Under the pieces are notes generated by a model. That model was not told where the DNA came from. It searched no databases and saw only the letters and a list, made by a program, of their open reading frames with translations. A program made the position numbers and the translations under genes. Shown piece by piece: positions 6,261 to 42,500 of a DNA stretch of 64,000 nucleotides (positions within the stretch are counted from its first letter, which is position 1; every line of letters begins with the position of its first letter). Source of the stretch: Catajapyx aquilonaris (taxonomy: Eukaryota); contig JYFJ02001128.1 in NCBI GenBank assembly GCA_000934665.2, positions 1 through 64,000 of the forward strand, in the 5' to 3' direction.

Positions 6261-6430
6261 CCATTGAGATAATTATTTTCGTTGCGTTTTGCTATTTTTA
6301 TTTTTTTTTTGCTCAGGAATACCCTACTCTTTATCATATCTGAAATAATTGGTGTATATTTTTATAAATAAAGTCAACATCCTGTATCAATTATTTATTA
6401 CTGTACACATGTATGAATAAGTCCTTCATT

Positions 6431-7013
6431 TCATTGCAAGGTGGCAATATCGACATTGTTGGCGGCAGGGGCAGTTACAGCCAGTTTGGTTGTAGAAGTT
6501 GCAGTATGAACGTGGACTTGAGTGCAAGTCGGCTTCTAGTCGGCGAGTCTCTTGCAAACGTATAGATTTTTGTGATCGCAATGTGCGTCGTTCCACTTGA
6601 AGAGAGACTCCGAAGCGAAAATAGGACCAATCATTTGGAGGCAGTGCTCGTTTCCACCTGCGTTGTCTAGAGACGGGTGTTTCGCTCCTGATGGTCTTAC
6701 TAATGCCTCCCAGCAGGTGTAAACCATTGTCTTCTAAGTCGATTCCCATACCCATCGACCTTCGTGACCCCTATTTAAAATATTGTGGACATTTTGAATA
6801 TGAAGTTACCCATAATATCATCAGTATAAATAAATACCTTTTAGAGCATGGGTTCTTAGGGCGATATCCTCCTCCTGTGTTTCACATTGTGGCCAAAACC
6901 GAATTTACATTTCGACAGTTTTCCACCGCTTCCCAGCAGTTCAGCAACTACTTGCTGAAATAATAGCACCCTGTAGCTAGCTGAATAAACGGATCTCGAC
7001 AACCACCATCATC

Positions 7014-7055
<42 letters not shown>

Positions 7056-7631
7056 TAACGTCCACACATGAAGGCTGCGACTTGTGTCATTATGATGTAT
7101 TCCCGATTGCTTAGCTCCAATAACTGTATTATAATGAATTGTCCAAGACATATTCACAATTATTGTGAATATATCTTAAGACACTTAATAATAAATAATT
7201 TACAGTAGCAGACAACATTCTCACTTTCACTTTCTATAAAAACAGCGTATATTAGACTCATCTAGTTTTCCCAGATGGCATCAGTCAACGACTGACCATA
7301 TGAAGACCTGAAGCACTCTTCTGCTTCTTTCCAGCTGGCCTTTGACCCATCTCGACTCTGAAAGTAACATATACAGTAGCTTATATACACTGGAAAAGTA
7401 TTGTCGAGAATGCAGATGTGCTTAATATCGGTTCTTTCTTCTCGCAGATGTATGACCTGTGGAGTGAACATCCACCATCGTGCCACATGTAGCTCTTGGA
7501 GGTAGATTTATAGTACACCGCTAGGCAATTCCGGGTTGCATCTTCATTGGTCTCATTATAGGATCCCACCCAGACCCATCGTCCTATTCTCTTAGCCAGG
7601 TCCGATCCCCCAAATAAAAAGGGCCTGTTGA
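6431..7631 (-). pseudogene. Lectin H pseudogene
   Basis: No exon 1. Exon 2 has an internal deletion after WVW and no GT donor. TAG in the linker (7262) and in exon 4 (6948). Exon 5 lacks its 5' part. Confidence 0.9.
7018..7051. repeat. (GA)n microsatellite
   Basis: About 17 GA units; forms the pyrimidine tract before exon 4 of pseudogene H on the minus strand. Confidence 0.95.
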
Positions 7632-7748
7632 CTAAACGATGATAAATTAGCCTCCAGGCTTTTCCTGTAGTTTAATATAAATCAAACGATCAAATGCTTC
7701 ATTTTATTCAATTTATTTCTTATGCACTGTCTAATTTTAGTGCTTTGT

Positions 7749-12973: not shown

Positions 12974-13407
12974 GATTCTGATCCAACAAGAACTGCTGTA
13001 AAAAAACGACCATGACACGACACTAATTTCAACTTGGAGGTCGCAGCATTGATCTGGCATTAGGAATGTAACGTCTGATCTTTTGACTTTTTCCCTTTAA
13101 TACCAGTGACGTCAGTAATCGCAACCAAAGCATACTATCAGCAGTTTAATGACGTAGTGTTATGCAGGATCAGACGGTATGGATAGGATCATTATTTAGA
13201 GTGCTGTTTACTTTTAATGTGATCACTATATGCATTAACACATTTTATTACAACCTTTTATGATATAGTTTTAAATGTTTCTGGCCTCGTTCTTTGGTAT
13301 TGAGATTGTGAGACAAAAAATGGCTTCCTGCCGAGACCATTGGACACAAATTATGGGAAACAGTACACAGAGAGTTAGGCCCAACCGTTTGTCAACACGT
13401 CAACTTG

Positions 13408-14509
13408 TTATGAGTACGTAACAGCCGACTGGCATATGAATTCATGGTGTGAGGTGCATGCATCGTTGCTCCAAGAGTCCATCGTTCTGTCCAGAAGCAG
13501 GCAGTTCTGATCAGGTCCTGAAGGAATCGGGACATCATCCTGGCCAGACATCAATCCTGATGGGATGTCTTCCTCCCCTACCTGTACGAGACCGGTTGCA
13601 GCCACCCACATGCTATCATCTGAAACTGAAACAGAGGAATGGTCCTGATGTTGCACAATATGTTAAAAAAAATATTCAATCGAACTTACTGCTGCCAGTC
13701 AATCGTGCAAAAGCCTTCAACTGAAGCAAATCCCTGTCTCCATGCACCTCTGCCATGTATCCTCCCAAGGCTCTGCAATACTCGTCAGCTTCAGACCAGC
13801 TGGAAGTCAGTCCCTTGCTGTGAAGGAAGCACTTGCTGGACAGCATGGTGAACATCGGAGGACACGAGGGCTTTCGAGGCAAATGACAGTGACAGCTGAC
13901 GTTCAGTGGATCAGGACACGGCTGTCCAGAAGCCTTGTTCTTCTCGCATATGTAATGCATCTGCCCGTCGCACCTGTAGTCATTCCAGGAGTATCCGGTC
14001 TTGTGAAAAATCATGAGACAATTCTCGTTGCCTTTCCAGTTGTCTTCATCAAAGTCAGATGACATGTACAGGAGTGGCTGGTAGTTCGATTCCCACAACC
14101 AGCGTCCTTCGTGACCCAGGTCAAAACCACCTATCCAGTAGCTTCTTCTGGCTAATCTCACAGAGAATAAATAAATAACATTACAAAGACGCTTTCCAAC
14201 TGGGCAACCAAATAGTTTAACCCAAACCATATTATCTGGAGACATTTTAATTAACAGACCGTACAGGCGATACTTACTGGATCGTGCGTAGTCTTTCAGG
14301 CGCGTGTCTTCCTGGAAAGAGTCGATTGTGGCCAACACTGCGTCATAATTTCTGCATTTTTCTGCTGCCTCCCACCAGTTTGACTGCTGGTCACTGAAGA
14401 AGTAGCATCCTCCACCGTTCAGGCTAACAAAAGGTGGACTACAGTCCTGGGCGGCACAAACCACTAGCACAAAGAAGCCTCCGAATAGAGCTGTTGCTTT
14501 TCCCATCAT
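13408..14509 (-). CDS. Lectin D: atypical dual C-type lectin (domain-2-type CTLD followed by a divergent CTLD), 3 exons
   Basis: ATG 14509 (MMGKATALFGGFFVLVVCAAQ), downstream of a TATA-like site and TCATTC. Exons 14509-14278, 14151-~13689, ~13620-13408. First domain carries the GGFDLGHEGRWLWES and WND signature of domain 2; second domain CPPMF..KCF..WSEADEYC..WSND.C...FIC. Confidence 0.85.
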
Positions 14510-15394: not shown

Positions 15395-16854
15395 TTAATT
15401 CAATGCAGTGAAGTTGATATTGTTCTCAGCAGGACAGTTGCAAGTCCTCGCCGAATTTCTTGCAAAGGCGCCATGGCTAGTAGAAATCGCAAGTCGTTGG
15501 CATATGTAAGGAGATTTGCGATCGCAAGGGTAATCGTTCCATTTGTAGTTGTGAACTCCACCTGCCAAATGAAGGCAATGCTCGTTTCCACCTGAATTAT
15601 CCGGCTGTTGATATTTGAGGCCCTTTTCAGTCACTAATTCCTTCCATGCTGTGTAAAGCAACGGTTTCTGAGTCGATTCCCATAGCCATCGACCTTCGTG
15701 ACCCATGTCGAAACCTCCCAGCCAGAAAGATTTGCCGTGGTTTTCTGTCAAATATACAAGTGAGATTTAGTCTGACAGTCATCCTGCCACATCGAGCTTC
15801 TCTTGCTTGCCTTTACGCGCTTGCTTTATAAGAGCAAGATTCTCCTGGGGCGTTTCGACTGTGGCCAAAACCGAATTGTGATTGCGACAGCTTTCAACTG
15901 CTTCCCACCAGTTCATCGACTGGCTGCTGAAATAGTAGCACCCTGTGGCTAACTGGATGAAAGGAGCATCACACTCACCTGCGAAAAATATTAATCCTGT
16001 GATACACTGCATTTTCAGTCCTCATCAGTTCTGATGGTGGCATAGTTATTTCTTATAAATATCACAATAAAGATGCCCACCATCTCACACTTGACTCACC
16101 TTCATATTGGCTGCCTGATGAGTATGTCTGGGTTGGAAACCGTTTGGTTCCAAAACACACGTCTGGAAGAGAGTAATGGTCGCACGAAGAAGCTCTGAAA
16201 CACTCCTCGCCACCTTTATTCTCACCAGCAGTCAACTTGTGCCGACTCTAATGGAAAGAGTTACATATGCCTCAATATTGCTAAAAGTAGGGTATCTGTA
16301 AGTTCATAATATGTAGGCTACAATACTTTACCGTGACTTGCCCCCTCTCGCATATGTATGTGGCCTTATTGAGACAACCCCAGTCGTGCCATTTGTAGGT
16401 GTGATGCTTCCAGTACACCAAACAGTTATGAACCTCGCCTGTCTTGGGCTGACCATTTTCCCATCCCGTGTACAGAAAAGGCTCGCAAGTTGCCTCCCAG
16501 ACCCATAGCCCTTCCCGGAATCGGTCAGATCCTCCCAACCAGAAGGGCCTGTCAACTGAAATGATTTAAATCAATCAGTCATTTATCCTGATAGAATAAT
16601 GAGTCCAACTTACATGCTGCGACCTGCTTAATGATGGCTGCGTCTTCCTCAGCTGTTTCCACCGTAGCCAAGACCGAGTCGTGCAAAAGGCAAGATTCGT
16701 AAGCTTCCCAATAATTCCTCAGATCTGAGCTGAAGAAGTAGCATCCCGTCTCCAGCTCCACAAACGGAGGAAGACATCCGGATTGTGCCCTGCTGGTGCA
16801 GACCAATAGTGCAGCTACAATGCACCAAATTGCTTTCCACATGGTGTTCTTCAT
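15395..16854 (-). CDS. Lectin C: secreted dual C-type lectin, 5 exons, GC-AG intron 4
   Basis: Exons ~16854-16614, ~16555-16332, ~16247-16100, ~15978-15811, ~15745-15395. CTLD1 QPK/WHD; CTLD2 QPD/WND. Exon-4 donor is AAG|GCAAGC. Confidence 0.88.
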
Positions 16855-17546
16855 CTTTCAGCTTTCTTATTGCAAAGACTGGCAGAAAATGTATACTGAG
16901 TTTCAACCACTCTTGTTGCGGTCACTGGTGGCACCCTTTAATATAATCCATGGTTGACACTTTGAACTGTTCTAATTTTCATACTTTGATTGACATACGG
17001 AGCATGTAAGCTGATAAGGAATAGTTACATCATTAACGTTTGGAGATTATGCTATAGCTAAGTGCATTCCTACATAACTATACTTTTTTCAACATTTTCT
17101 CAAACAATAAAAATGTGTTTGCAATATTTATCACTTTCGTGTCTCTCCCACCACATCACTTTACGTTGCTATAACAGTGCACATTATCCACATGTGAGGT
17201 ATATTTTTGTTGTTTGGTTTTCCTCCATGTTATGCAATGTTTGATTCAACATGCAAGTGGCATATATCCCGATTCCGCGAAGCAATGAATTAAATATCAA
17301 CACTCTGTTATTACAGATTTGCGTACAACAAGTCTCATATTTTAACATAGATTACAAGTTATATAATTTCCGAATTGCTTTACTTTCAACAGTATAATAA
17401 TGACTTACTTTGGTCATGTCGATCAATGTCGTGTTACCTGTCGGTACAACAAACAAAATATTGGTTCTGCACTTACAATAATATTCTGCCTAATAATGCA
17501 CAAGAGTGTGTCTGGACAGTTTGATAGATGAATACAACAAGAAGCG

Positions 17547-17605
17547 TATAAAAGTGGGAGTGCATGTCGACTTCCTACATTGAAGAGTTGCAGAGTTCCA
17601 GCCAC
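17547..17605 (+). promoter_or_regulatory. TATA box and non-coding first exon of the Cys-rich peptide gene
   Basis: TATAAAA at 17547-17553; donor CAC|GTGAGT at 17606; acceptor ccctcttttag at 17708, 17 nt before the ATG. Confidence 0.7.
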
Positions 17606-17725
17606 GTGAGTAACTCCAAGGTACTTTTATCTTGTACACGATAATTTTTAAACCTGTATAGTTCTAGATATTAATGTCGTACTCTCATATGTTTGTTCCC
17701 TCTTTTAGTTAGAGGAGACGTCACA

Positions 17726-18339
17726 ATGATGAAGGGGATTGCTTATGCATTGCTGCTTTTATCCGTGTTGCATATTGCCACTGGTTTTTTTACCTTCAGC
17801 TTGACTGACCCATGTACTGGACGTAAGAGTCGTCTCATTCTAATATTCAGGGTGGCCACGAAATAAGGAGCACATGTTAGTGAGTAGTAAAACAGTGAAG
17901 AAAATTTAATAGAGTACACGCAAGTGAAACTACGGTTCAATAAAACATGTTTTATTGTAATTTCACTTGCTTTTATGAAATATTTTCTTAATTGCTCCAG
18001 TCCTTATTTAGTGGCCACGCTGGTATTTCAGAGGTATACATACTCTAGACCGTGTCTCAACGATAGAAGTGATAACGCAGTCATTTTGCGGAGAGTTAAA
18101 CGAATGTCACATTTTCGTTGAAACATTGCATACACACTGATTTTTCCCTTCATTTTCGTTTAGAGATGTACTCTCAGACCCAGGGTTGTCCATATACAAG
18201 CCAAGAGTGCTACGATCCTGCGGAAGACAAGTGCGTCACCTGCAACTGCGCTGGACCCGACCCTAACGACATGTTCAGCATGTTCACTATGTCCACAATT
18301 ACTTGCGCTCCAAATGAAAAGGTGGCTCCAAACTGCTGA
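17726..18339 (+). CDS. Small secreted 8-cysteine protein (90 aa), family unknown
   Basis: Exons 17726-17822 (GAC|gtaag) and 18164-18339 (tttag|AG) join in frame: MMKGIAYALLLLSVLHIATG-FFTFSLTDPCTGQMYSQTQGCPYTSQECYDPAEDKCVTCNCAGPDPNDMFSMFTMSTITCAPNEKVAPNC*. AATAAA at 18410. Confidence 0.85.
17848..18022. mobile_element. MITE-like element (Tc1/mariner-type ends) in the peptide gene intron
   Basis: cagggtggccacgaaataagga ... tccttatttagtggccacgctg form 22-bp imperfect terminal inverted repeats. Confidence 0.65.
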
Positions 18340-18680
18340 TAATTAATTTATATGTGTGATATCAACATTTAGTCTTATTTAGAACCATGCTGTACAGACC
18401 AAAGCGATCAATAAAATGTGCAAAAATCATGTTGATTCACTTATCATTTCAACAAAGCACTTTATTATTATTTTAGTTCCACACTTTCAGTTGCAGCACT
18501 GTCATACTGCTGCTGATGGCAACCAGACAAATGGAAACTCCCAAATTAGTGGAAGCGGCAGGACGGAAATATTGGTACAATACTGCAAATTGTGATACAA
18601 GCATGCCGTTTGGCACAGTTGTTCTCTGGACCAAAGTAAGCGATTTGACCCGCAGCTCACTTGATTTCGTCACTTAGGAT

Positions 18681-19136
18681 TCAAGATGGCGGCCAATAAT
18701 CAAAATGGCCGCCGTTGGTACAAAATCGGTATTTTTCGTCGGAAATTGACGATTGAGGAGTCAATTCCAAGCAATATGAAGTCGCTGAACACGAATCTAA
18801 TGTCAGAATGCAGTTTGAACACGCTTTAAACCAATATGGCGGCCAAGAATCAAAATGGCCGCCGGTGATGGTACAATAAATCGGTATTTTTCGTGGGAAA
18901 TTGACGATTGAGGAGTCAATTCCAAGCAATATGAAGGCGCTGAACACGAATTTGATGTCAGAACACAGTGTTAACACGTTTTAAACCAATATGGCGGCCA
19001 ACAATCAAAATGACCGCCGGTGATGGTACAAAATCGGTGTTTTCCGTGGGAAATTGACGATTGTGGAGTCTATTCCAAGCAATATGAAGTCGCTGAACAC
19101 GAATTTGATGTCAGAATACAGTGTTAACACGTTTGA
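18681..19136. repeat. Three tandem ~150-155-bp units, probably transposon-internal
   Basis: atggcggcc recurs at 18686, 18836 and 18991. Each unit has a ggcggcca...tggccgcc stem and ggaaattgacgattgaggagtcaattccaagcaatatgaag. Confidence 0.9.
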
Positions 19137-19228
19137 AAGTCATTGTGAACAGGCATTATACAGTGCAGAGAGTACAGTCGGTTAAAGGAGTATGTTACCA
19201 GACCCCTAACCTAGAAATTAGCCTCCAA

Positions 19229-19333
19229 CAGAGGTGCTGCCTAGGGGAGTGAGATTTATTGTATCAGGGGGAAGAACAGAGGTGCTGCTTCCCCCTGATA
19301 CAATAAATCTCACTCCCCTAGGCAGCACCTCTG
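19229..19333. repeat. Perfect 46-bp inverted repeat with 13-nt loop
   Basis: Arms 19229-19274 and 19288-19333 are exact reverse complements. Loop aacagaggtgctg duplicates 19227-19239. Confidence 0.97.
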
Positions 19334-19377
19334 GAATTAAGTCCAAAAGTAGCATATTTTAAAATTTTATTTTACGG

Positions 19378-20687
19378 TCAGTGCAAAGCAGTAATGTTGA
19401 CATTGTTATTAGCGGGACAATTGCATAACTTTTCTGCATTTCTTGCAGAAACGTCAGTGAAGTCAGGTCGGATGTGAACACTTATTGGGCAAGCAGGTTT
19501 AGTAGCCTTCGTGCGCTTGCATATGTAAAGTATCTTGTTATCACACATGCATCATTCCAGCTGAAGTTGTACACGCCACCAATCAGCTGTAGGCAATGCT
19601 CGTTTCCTCCTGAGTTGTCAGGTTCAGAGTATTTAACGCCTGTTTCCGACACTAAAACGTCCCAGGCAGTGTAAAATAAAGGTTTCAGAGTCGATTCCCA
19701 CAGCCAACGACCCTCGTGGCCAATGTCGAAGGCTCCTAGCCAGTAGGACTGGCCATGGGATTCTGTCAAAAATAATGGCAATTAGATTCGCATTATGCAA
19801 CTGGCAGTGCTTTAAATGCTTATTACCACTTCGCGCACGCGTCTTTACAGCTTCGTCTTCCTTTGGCGACTCGAGTGTGGCCAAAACCGATTTCTGATTT
19901 CGACAGCTCTCAGCTGCCTCCCACCAGTTCAACTTTTGGCTGCTGAAGAAGTAGCAACCTGTGGCTAGCTGGATGAACGGAGGTTCGCACTCATCGTAGC
20001 CTGACGTCCTGACTGGAAGGCATCCATTACAGGAGCATAATTCTGCCCTCTGATTACATGAAGCCGTGGAACATCCATCCACTTCTTTCAATACCTGAAT
20101 CGATTGCTGAAACATTCAGAAATCACCACACCATAAAAATCGAATAGAGTTTCTGTGTACCAGTATAATGTACCTTCTCCTTCTCACAGATGTAAGAGAG
20201 TTTTTCGTGGCAATTACCGCTGTGCCAACCATTATAGGTACCCAGGTGTGTCTTCCAGTATACTGAGCAGAGATCCGTCGATGATTTAGGCTCACCTGGT
20301 GCCCATCCTGAGTACAGGAAAGGCTTGCCCGTTGATTCCCAGGCCCAGCGACCTGATTTGATCAAGTCCGATCCGCCAAACCAGAAGTTCCTATCCACTT
20401 AATGGGAGTTAATGAAAACAAGTCAACTATCAAGAACTCTATACAGTCTACTTACACGTAGCAATGTGCTGGAGCAGTGCATGGTCCTCCTCAGCCGATT
20501 CCACAACTGCTAAAACCGAGTCGTGCTGTCGGCAAGAGTCACCTGCATCCCACCAATCCTTCTTATCCTTGCTGAAGAAGTAGCATCCTGTGTTTATCTC
20601 TACAAAAGGTGGTGGACAGCCACAGTGGGCCTTGGATATCCAAACGACAGCAATGACAAACCACACTACTTCCAAGCTCCTCCTCAT
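19378..20687 (-). pseudogene. Lectin B: dual C-type lectin with a 1-nt frameshift in the last exon (pseudogene, null allele or sequence error)
   Basis: TGG AAT GAT GCA TG- TGT GAT at ~19546. Adding one base restores CDNKILYICKR...LCNCPANNNVNITALH*. CTLD1 EPK/WHS; CTLD2 EPD/WND. Linker is fused to exon 4. Confidence 0.8.
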
Positions 20688-36500: not shown

Positions 36501-39500
36501 GTTAGCTGATAACGGTACGGTGATTTCATTTAATATTATTTTCATATTGTGCAGGATTGGTGATCAGAAGAGGCAATCATGTCGGTGTTTCCTCTTCTGT
36601 CATCGGTGGCAGGACTGATTAAAGTCCGAGTGGGTACCGACAAGGCAGTCATCGACAATGCGGTGTTCCGTCTGCACTACCGTACCACCGCCACAATGCT
36701 GTTCGTCTGCTGCATCCTGGTGACGGCCAACAGCCTGATAGGAGCACCCATCAACTGCATCGCACAGAATGGTATCCCGGAGAATGTCCTCAACACCTAC
36801 TGCTGGATCACATCCACCTTCACTCTTCCGGGTCGGTACCTGGGTCGTGTTGGAGAGGACGTTGCCTACCCGGGGGTGGGAACCGCGGGCGGACCCGAGG
36901 CCGTCTACCATACCTACTACCAGTGGGTGCCCTTCATGCTGTTTTTCCAAGGTGGGTGCAGCAACATGACAGGTTCATTGCCACTTATTATTGGAGGCTG
37001 AACCGGTACACAAACAAGGACTTCTGCATTGGAAGTTGTCTATATAAGAAATGGCAATGGCTCACGCTATACGTAAAAAAATGGGTGGATTTTTCGTCCC
37101 ACTGCTAGTTACTGCTAAGTTAGTAGTAACTAGCAGTGGGACGAAAATTCCACCCATTTGAATGACAGCAAATGTGTTCATAATTTGAGACAGAAAGGAC
37201 TGATTGTTGATGACTACGTGTGTTGTATGCCATTGCATAAGTCTATCCACACGGGCTTTTTTGCTCACTTCAGGCGACAGTCGAGCACAGTGTGCGGTCC
37301 TTTTGAGGTCTCATTGCCTAATCGGCGATTCAGAGAGTTGCACTCAGCATATCCTGTGAGAATGACAAGTGTATGACGCTGCTGATTTTGACCACAGTTT
37401 TGTTGATTCAGCTGTATTGACAAAGCTCGCATTTCCTTGTCATCAAGTTATGCGTCAAAATTCATGAATATCACTGACAATCTGTCGTTTTTCCAGGTGC
37501 GTTGTTCTACTTCCCCCACTGGCTATGGAAGACCTGGGAGGAAGGTCGAATGCGCAGCATCACCGATGGTATGCGAGGTGCGGTGCTTCATCTGGGAGAC
37601 CGAAAGGACCGTCAGACGCTGCTGGTGGACTACATCTCAGAGTCCATGCACATCCACACCCTGTACGCGGTCTCGTACGTCTTCTGCGAGCTGCTCAACC
37701 TGATCAACGTGATCGGCAACATCTTCTTCATAGACACCTTCTTGAACGGCGCCTTCCTCCAGTTCGGAGCCAAGGTGGTCGAGTTCTCCCAGGCCGACCA
37801 AGAGAACAGGACTGATCCAATGATCGCTGTGTTTCCTCGAGTGACCAAGTGCACCTTCCACAAGTTCGGTCCTTCAGGCACCATCCAGACCCACGACTCC
37901 ATCTGCATCCTGGCCCTCAACATCCTGAACGAGAAGATCTACATCTTCCTCTGGTTCTGGCTGGTCATCCTCGCTGTGCTGACCGCCGTCAACTTGATCT
38001 ACCGTTTGACGCAGGCCTTCTCTCCGTTGGTCCGTGCCTATGTCATCCAACGTCGTACGCGTCTCAACTACCTGGTCGGACTGGACGCGCTCATCCGACG
38101 CCTGCAGCTAGGAGACTATTTCATCATCAACCTCCTCGGGAAGAACATGGACACTCTCATCTACCGGGAGGTGCTGGACGAACTGGCCCGAAAATTGCAT
38201 TTGGAAGGAACCATCTCTGGACTGTCGCCGCCAACTAACGAAGGAAAGCCGCCCAAGAGTGACGCGTAAAGGATGATTCACATAGCGGCGATGTGGAACT
38301 GAAAAGCGAGCTATGTGGAACTAAAAAGCGAGCGATTTTTTCCAGCGATTGTCTGCTTTTTGGCCCCACATCGCCGATATGTGAAACACACCTTAGCGCC
38401 TTCATTTTCGTTGTTTTTTTGTGCTTTTGGTGCCATATGTCAACCAAGGCTTCCATTCATGACAGTGCATTTGTTTCCCCCTCCCCCTTTTTTTAAAAAA
38501 GTGTCCTGCCAGGATTAATGTGCAAATGAGTACGGTTGTGGTTATCATATCGCTAAGCATTCCTACCCCCCATCTTCTTTTTTTTGTTTTCTTACCATGC
38601 AGAATCTGCCAGAACTGTTTTTCTTCCTTACATGGTTTAGTTTTTCTACTTAATTTTATTTTAGACATGTGATATTTTGGAGCACCAACATTTACTGCCG
38701 TGTAGCATTTCATTGGAATAAAGTCACCGTTTTTATAGCCAATGGATTACAGTCAGTGTGATTGACCCTATAGATGCACTGCAGCTCTATTTATAACTGA
38801 GAGTTAAAATTATACACATAGCGTATGCTAAATTCCCACTGATTAACATGATTTCGCAGTCTCATTGATTAACGCTTGGATAATTTAAACATTGATTTTC
38901 ATATCCTTTGGTTCTCGTACATTGTGACATTATCGCTCATTCTGTGTCCTCGTAGATTCATTCGCAATATTACATTGTCCTACAGTTCAATTCGTAAATA
39001 ATGTAGATTACATCTTGCTCATATTCCTAGCCATTATTGTATGCAATGAAGGTCAAAGGCACAGAAAATGATTTCGATCATTACTTCTAAAACCCTTTGC
39101 GGTCATTACGCGGGCAATGCCATATATGCACTTACAAGTGTACAAAAGAAGGTACCGGCATTTCTTTCAGTGAAGTTAAGAGTTGGGGATGCCCACAGGA
39201 AAAAAAGAGGTCGTTCCCTGAATCTGACCAACCGTAATCGCCCAAGCAAACGCTTCTTCCGTAATGAGAAGGCGTAATAAATTGCATCATCCGGCCACTG
39301 GGAAGACACTTACGACCTGCGTAGGCCTACCTGCATACTTCCCATTACCAAGGCCGTCTGGTCTGGCCTAATCAAGTTCATTGATTTAAAAAAATATATA
39401 GGTGAACGGTCTCACTTGAAAATACACGACTCCCGGCTATTGCCCCGGGGGAACCAAAGCCATACACGGAAAACTTATGCGTCACTGCCTCTTACTAGTA

Positions 39501-42500
39501 CTTACAAAAAAAGTCACCTAATTAACCACACCAGCTTCCTTTACGATAATCAACGACTTTGTTATATATGAGGGTCAGCATGATCACTTGTTCCAGTTGA
39601 CACCGACACGACATTTGGGGCACATATTGTCCAGGTAAGTGCGGAATATATCCGACAGTATTGTACAGCATGGTGAAAGTATTTTTCCTCTTTTTGCCTA
39701 ACCTTCACTTGGCGTTAATGCTGAAGAATACATTTGTCCAAAACTTTTAGGGCGTACATGCCAGAAACTTCGATGTAGTGTGGTACAGGACATCCTCCGT
39801 TATCACCATGTTTTTCTCAGTTGCGACGACGTGACGGATGCATATCCGCAAGCTGTTTGTACTTCAGATAATGGACCACGAATTTTCTTTCGTCTTCAGG
39901 CAAGCACAGAGACAACTTCAGCAGCATGCTGTTGGCTCTTTTGTCTCAAATATCATGGCTTGTCCGAGTACGGGGTACGACGGACAAGGCGTCGATCGAC
40001 AACTTCGTCTTTCGAATGCACTACCGGGCCACCACCACCATCTTCTTCGTCTGCTGCATACTCATCACAGCCAACAGCCTCATCGGCGATCCCATCAGTT
40101 GCATACCACCGACGTCGGATATACCTAGTTCAGTCTTCAACAACTACTGCTGGGTGCATTCCACCTTCACGTTACCCGAACTGGCTGGCACCAACCAACA
40201 TATCTTCCACGGGATCGGTACTCCGCTGGGACATCTCAAGCAGCTTAAACATGCTTATTACCAATGGGTGCCGTTTGTCCTGTTCTTACAAGGTATGTTT
40301 ATCCCTTTATTGTGGTCAGTCGTTCCATAAAACAACAACTCGAGCTCATTTCATCCACCGAAACAGTTATAATGTTACTAACATCAACTATTTCGGAGAA
40401 TGACATGAACTCCAGCGAGAGTTAATTTTAACTCTTCTTTTTTAGAGAGTATGTTAGCATGAAATCAGAGAGTCAGATTGTACTGTGCAGATGTTCTCGT
40501 AAATGCCACCAAATGTACTGATCATACCCCTTTTTTTGGTACAGGTATCTGCTTCTACCTCCCTCACTTTCTATGGAAATGCTTCGAAGGTGGTCGCATA
40601 TCGTCGCTCACAGAAGGAATCAGGGGAGTTTCACTCGGCGACCAACAGGACAAGATGAATGCACTGGTGAAGTACATCATCGATTCCCTGTACATCCATC
40701 GTTGGTACGCAGCCAAGTACATCCTGTGCGAGATCCTCAACTTCGTCAACGTGCTGGGCAACATCTTCTTCATCAACCTCTTCCTCAAAGGAGCCTTCCT
40801 GAACTTCGGTCCTCGAGTGCTGGAGTACGCCAGCTCCGATTCGAGCAACGCCACCAATATATGGCTCGAGGTCTTTCCGAGGGTGACCAAGTGCACCTTC
40901 TACACATTCGGGCACTCCGGAAGCATCCAGATCCACGACTCCCTTTGCGTTCTGGCCCTCAATATCCTCAACGAGAAGATATACATTTTCCTCTGGTTCT
41001 GGCTCATCTTCTTGACCCTGATCTCCGGTCTCAACGTGCTGTACCGGATGGCCATGGTGATCTTCCCAGTGGTGAGGGTCTACGCAATGGAGCAGAGGAC
41101 CCGTGTGGCCAGAAGCGCCAACCATCTGATCCGAAGGCTTCATCTGGCCGACTACTTCATGCTCTGCAGCCTCCAGAGAAACATGGACATCTTGGTGTTT
41201 CGAGACTTCCTGGCCGAGCTATCAGAGGCCATCATACCACCCAAGAAAGTGGCGGCACCTGATGAAACCCTAAACCTCCAGAGGATGTACCCAAATGGTG
41301 TGGAGTCCGCCCCTTCTTTCGAGGCCCTAAATCGCAGGCTCAAATCTGAATTCCATCAACTGTGACAATAACGTGTTGAATATAATACAGTGTTAATTCA
41401 ATAAAATTGAGGCGATTGTTTCGTACGAAAAATGTTTGATTATTTTTTACACTTGTTAAAAGCGCAAGTAATTCGGGGCGTTCCCTGATATCTGCAGCAG
41501 TGTACAGTTCAAAACCGCAATTGTATTTCTCAATGAACTTTCGCAAATCATGGTTAGCCCCTTATCTTCATGCCAATATTCCGCGGAAGCGTCAACAAGA
41601 CATGGTTATATACAATATGTCGGCAAGATGACACAAGACCTACTCGTCATTTCACTGATTTCAAAGAAAAGCCTGCATCATTGCGGAGCTGTGAAGCGCA
41701 AACCTCTCGAATCGCCTGCTGACACTTCTTCCATTGTTAAGAGTAACAAATAACGTCACCGCAGCAGACATAGGGGCGGATATCTTCACCGCAATTTCCA
41801 CCAAAACCGCAATGAGCAAAGGGAATTCGTGGTGCGGAAAAATGGCGCCGATTGAACTGGCGTCGCCGGATGTAAAGTGTACAATAAAAAATGTAAAAAC
41901 AATATCAGAATTTACCTGTTTCCCCAGTCGATCTTAGCTGTAATCTTGAGTTTGAGCTCTCTGGTTTGGTCCTGAGTCAGTGTTCCGACGATGAGTTGTC
42001 GCCTCCAGCTCTGAAGCTCTCGCATCACTTTGCCCAAGGTGTCGAACTTGTACTGCTCTCGTTCCTGCCACGAGAGAAAGTTTGGCCCATTAAAAATACA
42101 TTTCAGCTACGGTTTTGTATCAGCATTGTTCTTACCACAAAAAGACGCTTCCAAATTCCGCCCCATTCTCTCAGAACCAAAGTCACTTCGAGGACTACGG
42201 GGTCTTCCATAGGTGTTATGGTCTCGTACAACCTGAAAACCAAATTGTAGCAATGTACATATTGTAATTTAGAATAAAAATAATGGATATTCACATCATG
42301 TGCCTGGGTTATTAATGCTATTTTTTTTACTCAAAGAATAAGCACCAACAATGCTTCTAATTAATGAACTGAACTTGAGCAGTGTACCACCCTGTGCATG
42401 ACTCAGGATTGGCCAGTAAATGGTAAATATGATGTACGTCATCTTATAAGGAAGCAAATGTGGGTCATCTGATAAGTCCTACTCCGCCCTACTCCTGCTC

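Follow-up and report, generated by a model that had tools for sequence, protein, structure and literature searches.

The window analysed here, a stretch of 64,000 nucleotides from Catajapyx aquilonaris (contig JYFJ02001128.1), carries on its minus strand at least ten genes for predicted secreted C-type lectins, followed by a DOCK-family gene. Between two of the lectin genes, on the plus strand, lies what is very probably, judging from the sequence, a spliced gene for a predicted secreted, acidic, disulfide-locked peptide (Table 1). Both strands of 16800-19200 were inspected, and the gene model was rebuilt from its coordinates. The TATA box, untranslated exon, two in-frame coding exons, hydrophobic signal peptide and AATAAA signal listed in a preliminary description were all found at the positions given there. 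The peptide of 90 residues and eight cysteines, with the spacing C-x10-C-x6-C-x7-C-x2-C-x-C-x18-C-x9-C and a terminal Cys, was likewise recovered exactly. The same description had placed the gene antisense within the lectin array. The orientation is indeed opposite to that of the lectins, but the gene occupies intergenic DNA, clear of every lectin exon, so that "antisense" can mean no more than opposite orientation.

Table 1. Features of the peptide gene and its surroundings (positions in the window)
Feature	Position	Strand	Remarks
Junction of two lectin domains (end of one, CxC linker, beginning of the next) in the array's most divergent lectin	13814..13972	-	Sole stretch weakly like the peptide
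Left neighbour, two-domain C-type lectin	15395..16854	-	Head to head with the peptide gene; start codons 872 bp apart
TATA box (TATAAAAG)	17547..17554	+	Sole plus-strand TATAAA within 16900-19300
Exon 1, untranslated	17579..17605	+	Predicted 5' end about 30 nt past the TATA box; lacks a consensus initiator
Intron 1	17606..17708	+	103 nt, GT-AG, 32% GC; donor GTGAGT at 17606
Exon 2	17709..17822	+	ATG at 17726; encodes predicted signal peptide and Cys30
Intron 2	17823..18163	+	341 nt, phase 1, GT-AG; donor GTAAGA at 17823
MITE-like element inside intron 2	17848..18022		175 bp; 22-nt terminal inverted repeats
Exon 3, coding part	18164..18339	+	Seven of eight Cys; stop at 18337-18339; 51% GC
9-nt unit in three copies	18271..18297	+	Encodes Met/Phe-rich part of Cys61-Cys80 loop; TRF score 33, 83% matches
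Polyadenylation signal AATAAA	18410..18415	+	71 nt past the stop
Right neighbour, two-domain C-type lectin	19378..20687	-	Tail to tail with the peptide gene; frameshifted in this haplotype

The coding sequence consists of 273 nt, that is 90 codons and a stop, and exons 2 and 3 join in frame in phase 1. Exon 3 is richer in GC (51%) than the introns (32-36%). Seven GTRAG donors occur within 16900-19300, two of which are used by the model; from the same interval the model takes the two best acceptors (13 of 15 pyrimidines) among five plus-strand candidates, and the minus strand has none. The acceptor of intron 1 follows a pyrimidine tract and ends at 17708, and a second possible AG at 17712 lies within the untranslated region. 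A minus-strand AATAAA at 18461-18466, about 45 nt beyond the gene's own signal, may end the convergent lectin transcript, in which case the two 3' ends would nearly touch. The inverted-repeat element in intron 2 was absent from the list of features in the preliminary description. It has 27 matches on 20 other contigs of the C. aquilonaris genome, where three distinct relatives with both ends measure 513-537 bp, and it is a short derivative of a dispersed family.

Several features of the surrounding array can be recorded. Most two-domain lectins of 1-22450 (minus strand) end in a conserved C-N-C-P or N-C-P followed by Asn-Asn, a tail that lies outside the lectin domain. A lectin copy at 6300-7700 (minus strand) contains stops and broken frames and is probably a pseudogene. 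The most divergent lectin (13400-14509, minus strand) carries a further degenerate lectin domain past its CxC tail; its first intron is free of in-frame stops, and its nearest relatives, on other contigs, share 34-40% over the linker region. In the right neighbour a frameshift is located in the last exon near 19548. The corresponding copy on C16615 reads through, and positions 1-634 of that contig look like the other haplotype of 18451-19645, being identical over 97 bases at each end and 99% identical over the lectin exon. There, 223 unrelated bases replace about 785 bases of repeats. Two repeat structures of the window are absent from C16615:1-634, namely a 155-nt unit in three tandem copies, each opening with a short palindrome (18682-19184), and, just beyond the lectin stop, an inverted repeat of 46 nt, perfect and with a loop of 13 nt, accompanied by a direct repeat of 14 nt (19227-19333). 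Farther along, plus-strand innexin genes (36564-41365) are nested in an intron of the minus-strand DOCK-family gene; one was confirmed by Pfam, and a second, together with a further exon set, was recognised by likeness. Compared with the listed innexin-3 proteins of named insects, one of these innexins shows no more than 60% identity across most of its sequence, and it shares 88% with one assembly protein.

To assess coding potential, 16 exon pieces of the window were used to train a codon-position Markov model. In the predicted frame exon 3 received an LLR of +5.8, and the five alternative frames lay between -4.8 and -40.1. A score as high was reached by 6 of 6344 presumed non-coding windows (5 of 588 among those free of stops), and 3 of 32 held-out coding pieces scored at or below it, so that exon 3 ranks among the lower-scoring of genuine exons. 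Its synonymous codon use was equalled by none of 5000 nulls, and that of the whole coding sequence by 18 of 5000. The signal-peptide exon, exon 2, is not coding-like (LLR -6.4; equalled by 2112 of 5000 nulls); signal peptides can be expected to behave in this way, yet the result counts against the gene. The presumed non-coding DNA, 23.5 kb in all, contains 157 open stretches of at least 57 codons, of which one has seven cysteines and none combines at least seven with a terminal Cys.

The sequence evidence leads us to regard the gene as real with high confidence. That its signals were assembled by chance, or that the locus is a silent relic, is very improbable. Such a reading would be consistent with the failure of the searches described below to find an orthologue, with the codon tests of exon 2, and with an ESM recognition value of 1491, below the 2300 reached by 91 of 100 known-family proteins, although this measure says nothing on whether a gene is real. 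Against it stand seven signals in correct order and frame, the codon use of exon 3, which is better than all 5000 nulls, and an intact frame with an even number of cysteines and Cys as the last residue.

The cysteines of the peptide occupy residues 30, 41, 48, 56, 59, 61, 80 and 90 (spacing 10-6-7-2-1-18-9), the last being the C-terminal residue. Hydropathy reveals a single hydrophobic segment, with its peak at residues 9-17, and no second anchor. Cleavage sites of the (-3,-1) type follow residues 19, 20, 25 and 27 of the predicted signal peptide, and the predicted mature chain would therefore comprise 63-71 residues of about 6.9-7.7 kDa, with a pI of 4.05 and a net charge of about -6 (eight Asp or Glu, two Lys, no Arg). 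Dibasic, N-glycosylation, amidation and propeptide signals were sought in the peptide and are absent. The Met/Phe-rich loop pointed out earlier is present, and it is encoded by the 9-nt triplication at 18271-18297. AlphaFold2, applied to the 57 residues of exon 3 alone, gave five short strands and no helix (mean pLDDT 62, pTM 0.36), with one strand each at Cys48 and Cys56, one immediately ahead of and across Cys61, and one preceding each of Cys80 and Cys90. Foldseek returned three rows in all for this model, each of them the BCMA ectodomain. At low confidence, the last exon is predicted to be all-beta with no fold match.

Remote protein searches were carried out with single exons, mostly exon 3, which accounts for 57 of the 90 residues and seven of the eight cysteines. 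No family match was obtained in Pfam, no match to PDB sequences at E 10, no usable match in the ESM Atlas and no match in Rfam. Among 5.8 billion proteins exon 3 had no word-sharing candidate of 31-100 or 101-2000 residues. A phmmer search of 1.84 billion representatives yielded four matches at E <=0.001, which were rejected as tandem-repeat proteins with 5-9 matched stretches each; two are Kelch proteins, and the cysteine frame is present in none of the four. Of 42 pattern matches in metagenomes two passed, and both were rejected, one being a 15-residue match in an unrelated protein and the other lying among stops. Among the articles listed by a literature search none dealt with such an orphan gene, judging from titles and the opening of abstracts; text searching is blind to cysteine patterns, so this peptide may exist in print.

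Within the C. aquilonaris genome, loose protein and DNA searches returned nothing but the gene itself. One cysteine-pattern scan gave 5 matches (control 7) and another 17 (control 2), the latter made up of 13 triplet repeats, the gene itself and three others. A broad paralogue pattern gave 867 matches against 302 in the control, mostly triplet repeats among the 100 listed. Seven non-repeat loci from the cysteine-pattern scans were examined as sequences and are not paralogues. The gene thus looks single-copy in its own genome, as far as sequence can tell, and the best reading is a lineage-restricted orphan driven by a TATA promoter of its own. Orphan genes for secreted Cys-rich products are common in general. 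The earlier statement that the peptide fits no recognised family was borne out for the families searched, that is for Pfam, PDB, the protein and metagenome sets and the family tests that follow.

The CxxCxC core had been said to recall VWC and pacifastin folds. Like pacifastins (PF05375, MEROPS I19), the product would be a small secreted arthropod Cys-rich peptide with a predicted beta-sheet; six of its exon 3 cysteines can be aligned with C...CxxCxC...C...C, and a Gly is found in the loop after CxC. As given in the available text of PMC13388995, pacifastins have six cysteines paired 1-4, 2-6 and 3-5, a C1-C2 loop of 9-12 residues (conventional) or 13-20 (ancestral), an invariant Asn directly after C2 and a four-residue reactive loop, C5-x-P1-P1'-x-C6, in which Phe or Leu at P1 directs the inhibitor to chymotrypsin-like proteases. 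For comparison, 41 PF05375 matches at E <=10 were collected from the C. aquilonaris genome, and 30 of them supplied one domain each. The 41 include 21 over the Pfam cut-off, and clusters are found on contigs C3308, C5235, C6058, C712 and C9994.

The peptide departs from this set in several features. It has two extra cysteines, and its spacing is 7 (or 14)-2-1-18-9, whereas most copies in the genome have 9 to 11-2-1-6 to 9-4. Its C1-C2 loop has seven residues if Cys48 is taken as C1, or 14 with an internal extra Cys if Cys41 is. C2 is followed by Val57 and not by Asn, which 28 of 30 genomic domains have. The C4-C5 loop contains Gly63 but is 18 residues long, compared with 4-9 in all 30, and nine residues separate Cys80 from Cys90 where 28 of 30 have four between C5 and C6. 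The peptide has no Pfam match to PF05375, and its locus is not among the 41 genomic matches at E <=10. It scored 10.1 bits against a profile of the genomic pacifastins, whose members reach at least 33, and 509 of 1000 Cys-keeping shuffles did as well; pairwise tests with cheap gaps agree. Pacifastin membership was rejected on four defining features and on the profile scores. What survives of the suggested resemblance is the CxxCxC core and the low-confidence all-beta model, and nothing beyond these.

SVWC (Vago) proteins carry a vicinal CC near the C-terminus. With them (PF15430) the peptide shares eight cysteines and predicted secretion, but it has no vicinal CC, a different spacing and a shorter mature chain. 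There was no Pfam match to PF15430, and the locus is not among 20 genomic matches at E <=10 in a loose search; these 20 loci contain 12 distinct CC-bearing halves, found with a pattern that itself required CC. The family is described, in the part of PMC13115929 consulted, as arthropod secreted proteins with eight cysteines and four disulfides.

The Foldseek rows direct attention to the TNF receptors. The available parts of PMC8024323 and bioRxiv 10.1101/2024.07.27.603686 assign CxxCxxxC and two helices to Grindelwald and an Asp-x-Leu tip to BAFF-R, BCMA and TACI, and the former source gives the Grindelwald ectodomain eight cysteines and places a Tyr directly behind a Cys in its N-terminal hairpin. 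The peptide resembles these receptors in its predicted beta-hairpin closed by CxxC and, for Grindelwald, in its number of cysteines. It differs in having CxxCxC and not CxxCxxxC, in lacking the helical C2 module in the model, in showing Asp50-Pro-Ala in place of the Asp-x-Leu tip, and in having no membrane anchor, given the stop right after Cys90 and the single hydrophobic segment. Its locus is not among 16 genomic PF09256 matches. Service as a decoy that captures an Eiger-type ligand, in the form of a soluble TNF-receptor-like hairpin (X2 module), would fit the exclusive BCMA hits, the Tyr-after-Cys hairpin and eight cysteines of Grindelwald (PMC8024323, in part) and the TNF-domain exons encoded in the genome (three matches), but it is an extremely unlikely role. 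The TNF domain of C. aquilonaris is split by introns.

In eight-Cys TIL inhibitors CxC is formed by the fifth and sixth cysteines, and the reactive loop lies between the fourth and fifth. The peptide agrees with them (PF01826) in predicted secretion, in having eight cysteines and, with the TIL spacing as generally known, in the position of CxC; it differs in that only two residues separate Cys56 from Cys59, in the lack of CxxxC and in the absence of a Pfam TIL match. By analogy, these inhibitors may serve as a fair functional model, although the general TIL spacing would leave no room for a reactive loop. In the available part of PMC10004685, the eight-Cys TIL proteins BmSPI38, BmSPI39 and BmFPI-F have four disulfides and inhibit microbial subtilisin-type proteases, and eight-Cys insect subtilisin inhibitors are reported to tolerate Met or Phe at P1. 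The CS-alpha-beta motif is CxxxC...CxC, and ten cysteine scaffolds of remipede venom peptides (xibalbins) are listed in Table 2 of PMC5577568, a source likewise available in part; the peptide has neither CxxxC nor the CC of ICK peptides, and its spacing equals none of the ten. Overall, the peptide is a member of none of the pacifastin, SVWC, Grindelwald/BAFF-R, CS-alpha-beta/ICK, eight-Cys TIL and C-type lectin families.

The C-type lectins (PF00059) of the array are secreted neighbours of the peptide, which differs from them in strand and exon layout and has no lectin domain match, but one member has a CxC linker with a weak likeness to it. The best non-self tBLASTn match in the window covers 13814-13972, with 32% identity over 56 residues and one 3-residue gap. 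In the masked window its score was reached by none of 500 full and none of 500 Cys-keeping shuffles, and taken as the best of 32 lectin tails by 1 of 500. Exon 3 alone, compared with the same stretch, was matched by 4 of 1000 shuffles in the pairwise test and by 4 of 300 in the best-of-32 test. Five profiles of lectin linkers, tails and N-termini scored the peptide no better than 90 to 674 of 1000 shuffles. Over the aligned stretch 67 of 159 nucleotides are identical, 6 of 15 identical residues use a common codon, and 7 of 300 codon shuffles are as good. No DNA remnant was detected when any exon or untranslated region was compared with 11 lectin loci, the matches being equalled by 6 to 41 of 60 nulls. 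Two further resemblances were dismissed: the N-terminal hairpin of the lectins (Cys-x10-Cys, Gly before the second Cys) was equalled by 25 of 500 shuffles as best of 32 and by 333 of 1000 in a profile, and the best of ten comparisons of the signal peptide with lectin leaders reached 6 of 300 before correction for ten tries.

Descent of the gene from the lectin at 13.4-14.5 kb, as an ancient partial duplicate in reverse orientation whose domain junction came to form a free four-disulfide peptide, is quite unlikely. The shuffle tests of the linker likeness argue for it, as does the distance of 3.2 kb from that lectin's start codon. The linker, tail and N-terminus profiles are nevertheless blind to the peptide, the DNA is saturated, matching no better than chance, though many of the common residues are particular to that one lectin, and the lectin is uninterrupted over the aligned stretch, within which the peptide gene has an intron. 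Remnant DNA is absent from exons, untranslated regions and upstream sequence, and most cysteines would need new partners. The fuller scenario of a scaffold born in place, with an inverted lectin-junction fragment gaining an intron, a promoter, a signal peptide, re-paired cysteines and a Met/Phe loop grown by slippage, is more doubtful again. If it were true, it would offer a traceable instance of a disulfide fold arising at the junction of two domains, and the lectin link in itself would mean that peptides with another fold can originate from a lectin array.

A functional tie to the lectins, as implied when the peptide was presented as an effector clustered with them, found no support. The upstream DNA of the gene shows no likeness to that of 10 lectins, since 5 to 56 of 60 nulls matched as well, so that promoter sequence is not shared, and 16900-17580 contains no kappa-B match and no excess of GATA (3 seen, 2.0 expected). 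Its place within the array is probably positional and not functional.

With regard to function, the gene would very likely be transcribed and spliced, and with only slightly less assurance the signal peptide would be removed and an acidic peptide of 63-71 residues and about 7 kDa secreted. The eight cysteines would probably form four disulfides, the last of which ties down the C-terminus. The core may, at rather less than an even chance, be a small antiparallel beta-sheet round CxxCxC that works in a VWC- or pacifastin-like manner, with Cys56 paired to Cys90, Cys59 to Cys80, and Cys61 to Cys48 or Cys41. Such a scaffold would present the 18-residue Cys61-Cys80 loop, lengthened by the 9-nt triplication, as an exposed Met/Phe patch that would bind an extracellular protein partner; this patch would be the sole large hydrophobic surface on an acidic peptide and hence the likely binding site. 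A secreted disulfide scaffold that binds protein through its Met/Phe loop has close to an even chance of being correct. An inhibitor or another binding effector is possible. Since Phe at P1 is a mark of chymotrypsin-type inhibitors and eight-Cys insect inhibitors of microbial subtilisins accept Met or Phe, a role as bait or inhibitor of a chymotrypsin- or subtilisin-type protease, with the loop as the bait, is the best single guess by analogy, though a speculative one.

The protease role was ranked above a structural or reproductive secretion, then an antimicrobial or toxin-like peptide, then the TNF decoy. A non-immune component of cuticle, egg coat, glue or seminal fluid, which cross-links or self-associates through its cysteines and hydrophobic loop, is unlikely but has some appeal: a strong TATA box and a compact layout with an untranslated exon fit an abundant tissue-specific secretory product, such secretions are often orphans, and the upstream region is devoid of kappa-B matches and of any GATA excess. 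The peptide, however, has none of the repeats or low-complexity blocks typical of structural proteins, and its even number of cysteines suits a closed monomer. In its size, its signal peptide and its four likely disulfides the peptide resembles antimicrobial peptides and toxins at large, and the location among lectins would suit such a role, which is nonetheless improbable in view of the net charge, the lack of Arg and of propeptide or amidation signals, the single copy and the absence of any database match to toxin or antimicrobial families. The CC of knottins and the CxxxC of CS-alpha-beta peptides are also missing. The toxin-like character proposed at the outset is not supported, given this charge and copy number, the absence of dibasic or amidation sites and the lack of a match to the xibalbin scaffolds in the part of PMC5577568 available.

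The locus thus adds a small, unannotated secreted gene of the sort that is missed by ORF-based annotation, with a cysteine frame that matches no tested family. In the search for inhibitors and binders, stable disulfide peptides that tether a hydrophobic loop are useful leads, and the short chain of this one would allow direct synthesis and assay.
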